A stretch of 64,000 nt of DNA from Escherichia coli (GTDB lineage Bacteria > Pseudomonadota > Gammaproteobacteria > Enterobacterales > Enterobacteriaceae). The notes below the pieces were generated by a model that ran no database searches, was not told the origin of the DNA, and saw only the letters and a program-made list of their open reading frames with translations. Below are positions 40,200 to 51,845 of this stretch, one piece after another. The stretch lies in NCBI RefSeq assembly GCF_003334785.1, contig NZ_QOWV01000009.1. One strand, 5' to 3'. Made by a program: the position numbers and the translations under genes. The first letter of the stretch is position 1, and each line of letters begins with the position of its first letter.

Positions 40200-40460
40200 T
40201 TACTGACGAGGATGCTTCAATAACTTCTTTACGTAATCGCGCAGCAGCTCCGTATCGTCGTCAGGAATGCTGGCATCGGGCTTTACCTCGTACAGCGCCC
40301 CCTCTACCTGATCAATCAACCGCTGTTGGTCATTTTGCGCCATATTGCGAAGCATTGCAGTGACGATAATCTCCAAAGCTTCTACCTGCGCACACAGTTC
40401 TTTCGACTCTTCTTCTTTTTGGGCAAGCTTAAATAACAACTCAGCAATGAGATTTTTCAT
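40200..40460 (-). CDS. iraP: Anti-adaptor protein IraP
   Basis: 86-aa [43 protein letters not shown]... recognised as IraP. Confidence 0.92.
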
Positions 40461-40922
40461 GTCTGTATTTCCTTATCCAAAGTATGGAGAAGTTAACATT
40501 ATGTTTCACAACTTCATAGTGTCTGGAAGTATTATTTTTATGACAAAGGAAATACTTTGCGCAAATATTTTTTGTTTGATTACCAGCGAAACGTTTCTCT
40601 TATTTAAATAATTACCCACACAAAATATAGGCTTTTAATTATCAACCTTTATTATAAATAAAAGTTATGAAATATATTCTCTTCGTTAACTTATAATTAA
40701 GAGAAAAAAACTCACCGCATGGCCATTTAAGCCAGGAATAAATTAGCTTCCCGTTCATCATTTTTGTGATCTTGCGCACATCTTTGAGATAACGCACTTT
40801 CTTCACCAGTACGTTGCACGCTTTGTCAGCAGAAGATTGCAACAATCTTTCAGAAGGCCGCGAATCCCCCGTTTTGTCGTGGTAATGTATGCACTTTGTG
40901 TTAGACGGGATAGGTTTTTAAG

Positions 40923-42017
40923 ATGGAAAAACTGCGGGTAGGAATCGTTTTTGGTGGTAAATCAGCGGAACATGAAGTGTCTCTGCAATCGGCAAAAAAC
41001 ATTGTCGATGCCATTGATAAAAGTCGCTTCGACGTTGTGCTGCTGGGCATTGATAAACAAGGGCAATGGCACGTCAGCGATGCCAGCAATTATCTGCTAA
41101 ATGCAGACGATCCTGCCCATATTGCGTTGCGCCCTTCGGCGACCAGCCTTGCGCAGGTGCCAGGTAAACATGAGCATCAGCTTATCGACGCGCAAAACGG
41201 TCAGCCGTTGCCGACGGTGGATGTCATTTTCCCGATTGTCCACGGTACGCTGGGCGAAGATGGTTCCTTGCAGGGAATGCTGCGGGTCGCCAATTTACCG
41301 TTTGTAGGTTCTGATGTTCTGGCTTCAGCAGCCTGTATGGACAAAGATGTCACCAAACGTCTGCTACGCGATGCCGGGCTGAACATTGCGCCATTTATTA
41401 CCCTGACGCGCGCCAATCGTCACAACATTAGTTTTGCCGAAGTGGAGTCTAAACTGGGGTTACCACTGTTTGTAAAACCGGCTAATCAGGGCTCTTCTGT
41501 TGGTGTCAGCAAAGTAACCAGTGAAGAACAGTACGCAATTGCCGTCGATCTGGCGTTCGAGTTCGATCATAAAGTGATCGTTGAGCAAGGGATCAAAGGT
41601 CGTGAGATCGAATGCGCAGTTCTGGGCAACGACAATCCGCAAGCCAGCACCTGTGGAGAGATCGTACTCACCAGCGATTTCTATGCCTACGACACCAAGT
41701 ACATTGACGAAGATGGCGCGAAAGTGGTAGTTCCGGCAGCCATTGCGCCAGAAATCAACGATAAGATCCGGGCGATTGCCGTTCAGGCTTATCAAACGTT
41801 GGGATGCGCAGGCATGGCGCGTGTAGACGTGTTTTTAACCCCAGAGAACGAAGTGGTGATCAACGAGATCAACACCCTGCCTGGCTTCACTAATATCAGT
41901 ATGTATCCGAAGCTGTGGCAAGCCAGCGGTCTGGGTTACACCGATCTGATCACACGTTTGATTGAACTGGCGCTGGAGCGTCACGCTGCGGATAACGCAT
42001 TGAAAACCACAATGTAA
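40923..42017 (+). CDS. ddlA: D-alanine--D-alanine ligase A
   Basis: 364-aa ATP-grasp [30 protein letters not shown]... recognised as DdlA. Confidence 0.96.
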
Positions 42018-47406: not shown

Positions 47407-50334
<2,928 letters not shown>

Positions 50335-50857
50335 TTGTCATCCCTCCTCAGGGACGTAATAAGTTGATCCATCAATTATCAATGCATAGAAAACATATTA
50401 TGTTTCGCGCTAACGATTATGCTGCGTTACAGACGAATGGTTCAATTATTCTTTCCCCTAAGTCCGAATGTGGACATATATAATTTATGGAGAAAAACAC
50501 GCATCAAATTCATAAAAGCACAGTATTTCAACATGTTGCAGATAATTTTGTTTTTGAAGCATACGCATAATAAATATCACAAATACAAACCAGATAAATA
50601 TCCTATGAATATGCAACAAAGTTTTAATTATTCAATTTATAGCAGCGCAACCAAACTCCAAAAAATAATAACCAACAGCTATAAATAAAGATTAAAAATA
50701 TTTTCAGTGAATATAAAATTATTGCTGTTTCTATTAAAAAGATGTCCTGGCCTCTCTTCCATTCTCTTCTTGTCAACATCGCGACAACTTTCGTAAAACA
50801 TCCCTACCCTGCTTCAGGTATACTATGCCCCTCGATTCCACAAACATCAGGCAGACC

Positions 50858-51832
50858 ATGACAGACTTAATCCAACGCCCTCGTCGCCTGCGCAAATCTC
50901 CTGCGCTGCGCGCTATGTTTGAAGAGACAACACTTAGCCTTAACGACCTGGTGTTGCCGATCTTTGTTGAAGAAGAAATTGACGACTACAAAGCCGTTGA
51001 AGCCATGCCAGGCGTGATGCGCATTCCAGAGAAACATCTGGCACGCGAAATTGAACGCATCGCCAACGCCGGTATTCGTTCCGTGATGACTTTTGGCATC
51101 TCTCACCATACCGATGAAACCGGCAGCGATGCCTGGCGGGAAGATGGACTGGTGGCGCGTATGTCGCGCATCTGCAAGCAGACCGTGCCAGAAATGATCG
51201 TTATGTCAGACACCTGCTTCTGTGAATACACTTCTCACGGTCACTGCGGTGTGCTGTGCGAGCATGGCGTCGACAACGACGCGACTCTGGAAAATTTAGG
51301 CAAGCAAGCCGTGGTTGCAGCTGCTGCAGGTGCAGACTTCATCGCCCCTTCCGCCGCGATGGACGGCCAGGTACAGGCGATTCGTCAGGCGCTGGACGCT
51401 GCGGGATTTAAAGATACGGCGATTATGTCGTATTCGACCAAGTTCGCCTCCTCCTTTTATGGCCCGTTCCGTGAAGCTGCCGGAAGCGCATTAAAAGGCG
51501 ACCGCAAAAGCTATCAGATGAACCCAATGAACCGTCGTGAGGCGATTCGTGAATCACTGCTGGATGAAGCCCAGGGCGCAGACTGCCTGATGGTTAAACC
51601 TGCTGGAGCGTACCTCGACATCGTGCGTGAGCTGCGTGAACGTACTGAATTGCCGATTGGCGCGTATCAGGTGAGCGGTGAGTATGCGATGATTAAGTTC
51701 GCCGCGCTGGCGGGTGCTATAGATGAAGAGAAAGTCGTGCTCGAAAGCTTAGGTTCGATTAAGCGTGCGGGTGCGGATCTGATTTTCAGCTACTTTGCGC
51801 TGGATTTGGCTGAGAAGAAGATTCTGCGTTAA
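50858..51832 (+). CDS. hemB: Porphobilinogen synthase (delta-aminolevulinic acid dehydratase)
   Basis: ORF-track frame 50825-51832; start placed at [37 protein letters not shown]... (324 aa). Confidence 0.96.
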
Positions 51833-51845
51833 TTTTGTTTCCTCT

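Follow-up and report, generated by a model that had tools for sequence, protein, structure and literature searches.

The window analysed here is a 64,000-nucleotide stretch of the Escherichia coli contig NZ_QOWV01000009.1 (RefSeq assembly GCF_003334785.1), in which the gene order is sbmA, ampH, iprA (yaiV), an autotransporter gene (yaiT), hemB (50858–51832), and tauDCBA. The start codon of yaiT lies on the minus strand at 50334–50332 and the annotated ATG of hemB on the plus strand at 50858, leaving a 523-bp intergenic gap (50335–50857) between the two divergent genes. The GC content of the gap is 0.338 (window mean, 0.511; sd, 0.048 for 523-bp windows), and equally low values are found in just 0.85% of the 523-bp windows; its AT content is thus far above the local average, as expected of an H-NS-silenced AT-rich region. 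GC is 0.245 in the core of the gap (50480–50740), 0.487 in the 117 bp adjoining hemB, 0.539 in hemB, and 0.453 in yaiT. In the sliding profile it rises from ~0.29 to >0.5 between 50700 and 50850, with a sharp step at ~50740–50780. An earlier note made from the sequence alone had described an AT-rich region of ~520 bp between yaiT and hemB with a sharp composition boundary and homopolymeric A/T runs. The first two points are borne out by these values; the runs are present (five of at least 5 bases) but not in excess of what the composition predicts (shuffled sequences of matched composition give 2.9 ± 1.6, P = 0.15), so that the observation holds except for the homopolymer detail. Only two further low-GC troughs were found in the window. 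The lowest (0.281), at ~55200–56100, precedes tauA, and from ~55335 onwards the O157 genome has different DNA, encoding a response regulator and a MASE1 histidine kinase where the window has yaiS/ykiC/yaiP; the third (0.338), at ~40200–41000, corresponds by coordinate conversion to the ddlA–iraP intergenic region. The gap sequence is 100% identical to that of E. coli FDAARGOS_1248 and 99.8% identical to those of K-12 derivatives, and is found in 5,422 of 5,426 complete E. coli genomes.

A HemB scan of species-representative genomes yielded 80 loci, the neighbours of which were mapped by tblastn. Arrangement A, with the order ampH, iprA, yaiT, gap, and hemB, occurs in ~40 species distributed over at least 15 genera of enterobacteria (Escherichia, Citrobacter, Enterobacter, Lelliottia, Pseudocitrobacter, Kluyvera, Trabulsiella, Yokenella, Pluralibacter, Leclercia, Superficieibacter, Phytobacter, Kosakonia, Intestinirhabdus, and Huaxiibacter). 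Arrangement B, in which ampH is the immediate upstream neighbour of hemB and both iprA and yaiT are missing, was found in Klebsiella, Raoultella, most Kosakonia, three Citrobacter species, Pseudescherichia, and others; its ampH–hemB gap is 87–170 bp long with a GC content of 0.42–0.61 in all but three loci. Arrangement C retains iprA and has yaiT deleted, the AT-rich stretch remaining in most such loci (examples are S. enterica subsp. diarizonae and Kluyvera intermedia), and arrangement D (Pantoea and Mixta) has a different left neighbour. Every gap of arrangement A is 389–617 bp long with a GC content of 0.32–0.38 (one, 0.44), and its profile is constant, ~100 bp of normal GC by hemB being followed by 200–300 bp at 0.15–0.35. 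At the other end of the iprA–yaiT module, the coding regions of ampH and iprA abut at convergent stop codons (46716/46717) with zero spacer, and therefore there is no room for an ampH terminator of its own outside iprA; genomes without the module have a GC-rich hairpin after ampH, immediately before the hemB promoter.

The yaiT gene (47428–50334, minus strand) encodes an intact 968-aa autotransporter orthologous to EhaB, UpaC, and SeaB, as judged from its ORF and the annotation of an identical strain. The names EhaB and UpaC refer to forms of a single E. coli autotransporter gene (PMC8281228), and SeaB, formerly yaiU, is the Salmonella positional ortholog of EhaB, which adjoins hemB (PMC13248724). 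In K-12 (JM109), yaiT is a pseudogene split by IS3, and in O157 it is annotated as ehaB. The gene has been inactivated repeatedly and independently, by a separate IS3-family insertion in EC14, an IS1-mediated deletion in strain 4848, and a frameshift in the O157 strain ECP17-46; the copy in the window is intact. A second composition boundary is located inside the gene at ~48430, between the barrel region (~47428–48420, minus strand; conserved in the divergence profile; GC3, 0.59) and the hypervariable, AT-rich passenger region (~48430–50240, minus strand; GC3, 0.40). Because GC3 is also low in iprA (0.36) and is host-like in the barrel, low GC tracks the variable segments, not the gene borders. 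Among alleles, the nucleotide identity of the passenger (48430–50240) is 35–80%, and the barrel, signal peptide, and promoter are conserved. The passenger alleles are older than the species: the K-12-type passenger shares 75% amino acid identity with Enterobacter sp. ENT03, 72% with Escherichia sp. MOD1, and only 46% with the E. coli representative genome. The barrel is 98–99% identical within Escherichia. In 33 species, the first ~10 codons (AUG CAn nCn UGG AAA AAG AAA CU., 50302–50331) are near-invariant, including synonymous positions, which suggests a constraint at the level of RNA or translation initiation.

The gap is composed of three parts, a yaiT control region (50335–50475) marked by family-wide conservation, an AT-rich spacer (50476–50780; GC, ~0.27) unalignable between genera, and the own promoter region of hemB (~50783–50857), shared with genomes lacking yaiT. 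In alignment A1 of 18 species, the 141 bp adjoining yaiT are strongly conserved: the 21 nucleotides before the ATG (50335–50355) are invariant, and further conserved blocks are ATTATGC (50416–50422), GTTCAA (50440–50445), and GTCCGAAT.CGGAC (50462–50475). A sigma-70 promoter of yaiT is predicted at 50416–50445 on the minus strand from this conservation and from a consensus scan that found it independently of the alignment; the −35 hexamer TTGAAC (50445–50440) and the −10 hexamer CATAAT (50421–50416) score 9/12 and are separated by an 18-bp spacer, within the 16–18 bp required of such a promoter. All 40 module-bearing genomes have the exact TTGAAC-18-CATAAT arrangement at 60–85 nucleotides from the ATG; it is also present in two of the five loci where yaiT is deleted and iprA kept, and is missing from both strands of all 32 module-free loci (arrangements B and D). 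Transcription would start at ~50409, giving a leader of ~75 nucleotides.

Upstream of the predicted promoter lies a 14-bp palindrome, GTCCGAATGTGGAC (50462–50475), a candidate operator with the family consensus GTCyG-N4-CGrAC. Its distance of 16 bp from the yaiT −35 hexamer is fixed in 40/40 genomes, with its centre at ~−59.5 relative to the predicted start site. The half-sites match at 5/5 positions in 12 genomes, 4/5 in 23, and 3/5 in 5 (n = 40), so that 35 of the 40 carry a dyad-symmetric element of the 5-N4/6-5 type with four or five matching positions, and conservation falls to nil directly upstream of it. The degenerate pattern has two matches in the window (0.5 expected), and no such palindrome was found upstream of iprA, where autoregulation was looked for. 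Within the transcribed leader (~+33 to +46), a box GTTGrTCCATCAAT (50363–50376) consists of near-invariant columns in alignments A1 and A3, and its RNA pairing is not kept in other genera. Closer to the gene, a 5′-UTR hairpin, CGUCCCU-GAGG-AGGGAUG (50339–50356, minus strand), encloses the Shine–Dalgarno (SD) sequence 5 nucleotides upstream of the yaiT AUG. The RNAalifold consensus of this SD hairpin has seven pairs, of which the five core pairs are kept in 32–33 of 33 sequences; the single-sequence fold is not significant (z-score, −1.74), and no compensatory changes occur in the stem among the 33 sequences, because the stem is invariant. The roles proposed below for the palindrome and the SD hairpin are suggested by sequence.

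At the opposite end of the gap, the predicted hemB core promoter (50785–50824, plus strand) is conserved with and without the iprA–yaiT module. Its −35 region is the conserved block CAACTTTCGTAAAACA (50785–50800); in alignment A2, which comprises the last 180 bp before hemB from arrangements A, B, C, and D, the block cAACTTTcGTAAAACA at these positions is common to genomes with and without the module. The −10 hexamer TATACT (50819–50824) is likewise kept (TAtAcT) with or without the module, and TAnAnT is invariant even in Pantoea. The hemB transcript would start at ~50831, and its 5′ leader (50831–50857, plus strand) has a conserved CATCAGGCAnACC before the ATG at 50858, as seen in alignments A1 and A2 and the RefSeq annotation. 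A 335-aa hemB ORF would result from an in-frame ATG at 50825; this codon, however, falls within the conserved −10 hexamer region, upstream of the predicted start site of transcription, and the alignments favour the annotated start at 50858 (324 aa). Since the A2 blocks are shared with module-free genomes, homology with these genomes begins at ~50783, and the GC step starts a few tens of base pairs upstream. The jump in GC falls at the junction of the iprA–yaiT module with native hemB DNA, and the hemB promoter is self-contained in ~75 bp. A natural deletion agrees with such a promoter: in strain 4848, the IS1-mediated event took yaiT and everything upstream of ~50806 and left hemB intact, the IS1 end supplying TTGGCA at 18 bp from TATACT to form a hybrid hemB promoter.

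An insulating or regulatory element had been expected by the earlier note at the composition boundary. Regulatory elements were indeed found, as described above, but not a discrete insulator. The gap contains no terminator-like hairpin, its boundary towards hemB has no repeat, and 50740–50785 contains no GC-rich hairpin followed by a T-run and no discrete conserved element. At the boundary, module DNA simply gives way to the self-contained hemB promoter, and because this promoter has normal GC and lies outside the AT-rich tract, no special insulator would be needed. On the far side of hemB, the hemB–tauD gap (51833–51938) exists in two alternative alleles, a K-12-type one of ~106 bp that includes a repeat-like, GC-rich element (CCCTCTCCCC...GGGGCGAGGGG), and one of ~40 bp with a simple hairpin in the other sampled loci (L005, at 7501–7539; L006).

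The AT-rich spacer (50476–50780), the presumed platform for nucleation and spreading of H-NS by analogy with the orthologous loci, contains 126 A, 96 T, 52 C, and 31 G. The equivalent stretch in ~40 species has a GC content of 0.15–0.35, and alignment A1 shows that 50741–50780 is conserved only within Escherichia. Among E. coli genomes, no other part of the neighbourhood varies as much as the spacer. Segment identities to the window sequence were determined across the 5,426 complete E. coli genomes: the yaiT control region (50335–50475) is at least 90% identical in every matching genome, and the hemB promoter with the 5′ coding region (50781–51085) is at least 95% identical in all but one, whereas the identity of the spacer is trimodal (864 genomes at ≥99%, 2,188 at 90–95%, and 2,203 at 60–80%). 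At least five spacer haplotypes are 18–30% apart, and the spacer of Escherichia sp. MOD1-EC7003, a genome assigned to a separate species, differs by 14% from the O157 allele, closer than E. coli alleles are to one another. The Jukes–Cantor (JC) distance between the K-12-type spacer and the O157- or B2-type alleles is 0.27–0.32, in comparison with 4-fold-site distances of 0.045–0.077 for hemB, 0.007–0.033 for the barrel, and up to 0.20 for tauD. E. coli spacer alleles nevertheless keep a length of 305–307 bp and a GC content of 0.25–0.28, and passenger and spacer alleles have been reassorted. As to motifs, TpA steps are 2.2-fold enriched, the H-NS high-affinity motif (TCGATAAATT-like) has three matches against 1.3 ± 1.2 expected, which is not significant, and the phasing of A-tracts is marginal (P = 0.059, not significant). 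No convincing tandem, flanking direct, or fimS-like inverted repeats were detected in or around the gap.

Evidence for H-NS at this position comes from orthologs. Binding of H-NS to the yaiU promoter of S. Typhimurium has been shown by EMSA, ITC (Kd, 0.29–0.46 μM), and ChIP-qPCR; H-NS represses yaiU, the repression being cited there from earlier reports, and yaiU expression is lowered by an H-NS variant whose occupancy of the promoter is higher (PMC10657408). UpaC is listed among the H-NS-repressed autotransporters of UPEC in the passage of PMC5012682 that cites Allsopp 2012. SeaB and EhaB confer no phenotype in their parent strains, for which repression in vitro has been offered as a possible reason (PMC13248724). 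In K-12, an H-NS mark obtained by SELEX is located at the yaiU–yaiV end, not inside the yaiT–hemB gap, and a full-text literature search for yaiT together with H-NS returned no report. The silencing of yaiT proposed in the earlier note thus gains support from the repression published for yaiU/SeaB and, in the passage mentioned, for UpaC, although yaiT is not a recent acquisition.

Beyond the observed anatomy, conservation, module junction, and spacer hypervariability, we consider it probable that the gap consists of two divergent, self-contained promoter regions and a constrained AT-rich spacer that silences yaiT via H-NS. Silencing by H-NS is the best-supported reading of the mechanism, the occupancy in the source strain being deduced from the orthologs. 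The left part (50335–50475) is the yaiT control region, with a predicted near-consensus sigma-70 promoter, a candidate operator near −60, a leader box, and the SD hairpin. The middle part (50476–50780), belonging to the ancient iprA–yaiT module, turns over in sequence with its GC held at ~25–30%. Most likely, H-NS (with StpA) nucleates in this spacer, from which it would spread over the yaiT promoter into the AT-rich passenger-coding DNA, so that an intrinsically competent promoter would be kept silent until counter-silenced. The right part (~50783–50857) is the native hemB promoter, GC-normal and beyond the AT-rich tract.

Alternatively, the AT-richness might be a functionless by-product, the mutational bias of enterobacteria towards AT having lowered the GC of unconstrained non-coding DNA. 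Such drift would fit a spacer that is unalignable between genera, diverges 2–6 times faster than local 4-fold sites, exhibits neither motif enrichment nor a significant curvature signal, and can be lost without harm to hemB, as in strain 4848. It is unlikely, however, given that GC of 0.15–0.35 is kept in ~40 species despite complete sequence turnover, that the E. coli spacer remains at 305–307 bp despite 22–27% substitutions, that the GC of the gap falls in the lowest 1% of the window, and that H-NS binds the orthologous promoter fragment (PMC10657408).

According to another explanation, which follows the view of yaiT as a horizontally acquired gene in the earlier note, the gap would be the edge of a recently acquired island with a dedicated insulator shielding hemB. 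The sharp GC step, the AT-richness of iprA, passenger, and spacer, and the adjacency of ampH and hemB, without the module, in Klebsiella, Raoultella, most Kosakonia, and some Citrobacter are in line with an island. Its recency is not borne out, however: the module is found in 5,422/5,426 E. coli genomes, at least 15 genera carry it at this site, the GC3 of the barrel is host-like, and barrel identity tracks AmpH identity (Spearman rho, 0.63; P = 3e-5), as expected under vertical descent. Its presence within E. coli is not patchy, and it is shared with related genera at this site, unlike what is expected of a recent island. No flanking direct repeats were found around the module, and the annotation of the intact allele includes no mobility gene; the boundary also has no terminator or hairpin. 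The synteny-based conclusion of a 2026 paper agrees that yaiT is not a recent acquisition (PMC13248724). We therefore regard a recent island as highly improbable, and yaiT would be horizontally acquired in an ancient sense only, the module representing an insertion or a deletion relative to the ampH–hemB genomes. The earlier interpretation is partly right, failing on two points: the acquisition was not a recent one, and an insulator was not found.

Least credible of all is that the spacer conceals a gene missed in annotation, for a small protein or an sRNA, or a switch for phase variation (invertible, simple-repeat, or Dam/OxyR), as might be suspected from an 89-aa ORF (50419–50688), a 51-aa ORF, short AT-rich inverted repeats, and the phase variation of other E. 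coli autotransporters (PMC6083910). Other E. coli alleles have disrupted versions of the ORFs, an Rfam scan of 49800–51400 gave no match at E ≤ 1, the K-12 annotation has no feature in the gap, tandem repeats are lacking, the single GATC is not conserved and forms no cluster, and in 5,379 genomes the match to the gap is a single colinear segment, so that there is no inversion polymorphism. The small ORFs, not being conserved among E. coli alleles, were rejected as genes.

Several known systems resemble the arrangement in which a spacer-borne H-NS complex would silence yaiT. The upaC gene of UPEC CFT073 and yaiU/seaB of S. Typhimurium share with yaiT the locus by hemB, the gene family, and the AT-rich upstream region, and H-NS binding and repression have been shown for these orthologs. 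The present locus differs from them in having a K-12-type yaiT allele that is intact, not IS3-disrupted, and spacer alleles up to ~30% apart; H-NS binding here is presumed by analogy. Faster evolution has been reported in E. coli for upstream intergenic regions bound by H-NS and for core genes of ancient acquisition, the median diversity of the bound intergenic regions being 0.016–0.022 (Higashi et al. 2016, PMC4720273). The yaiT gap is likewise that of an ancient, AT-rich, species-wide gene with a fast-evolving upstream region, and the spacer diverges faster than its neighbours as in that study, although its JC distance of 0.27–0.32 is >10 times the median reported there. The 523-bp gap exceeds the 10–300 bp size filter of that study, the tables of which include yaiV, but neither hemB nor yaiT. 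Regulatory regions upstream of autotransporter adhesins are known in E. coli also for agn43 (Dam/OxyR) and for upaE with the invertible element ipuS; unlike these, the yaiT gap has no flanking inverted repeats, recombinase, GATC cluster, or inversion polymorphism.

The palindrome bears a likeness to a further class of sites. Class I sites of the CRP/FNR type are palindromes of 5-N4-5 or 5-N6-5 centred near −61.5 (or −41.5). The palindrome of the gap has the geometry of an FNR box and would lie ~60 bp upstream of the transcription start, and the module itself encodes IprA, a winged-helix protein (HTH_46, E = 9e-31) with a weak cNMP-binding-like match; the layout of IprA is CRP/FNR-like only. 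iprA is present in every genome with yaiT, though the two genes are physically linked anyway. In an informal comparison, the half-site fits no operator known to us (FadR, Cra, GalR, TrpR, NemR, GlpR, and others). It is conceivable, if rather doubtful, that the palindrome is an IprA operator, through which IprA or another dimeric factor counter-silences H-NS, with the SD hairpin adding translational control (e.g., by temperature or CsrA); if so, the iprA–yaiT module would be a self-contained adhesin switch.

Altogether, the biology of the gap is largely of a known kind, mostly demonstrated for orthologs, and current understanding is not overturned; the exact promoter, the palindrome, and the allelic depth of the spacer are modest new details, and the palindrome is the one remaining lead, as a candidate. 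The locus provides a clean example of an old AT-rich adhesin module beside a housekeeping gene only ~420 bp away, in which the silenced promoter and its presumed AT-rich platform travel with the module and hemB retains its own 75-bp promoter. EhaB, UpaC, and SeaB are candidate vaccine antigens, and the predicted promoter, palindrome, and SD hairpin offer precise targets for studies of their expression. The deep allelic classes of the spacer suggest that strains may differ in the regulation of this adhesin.
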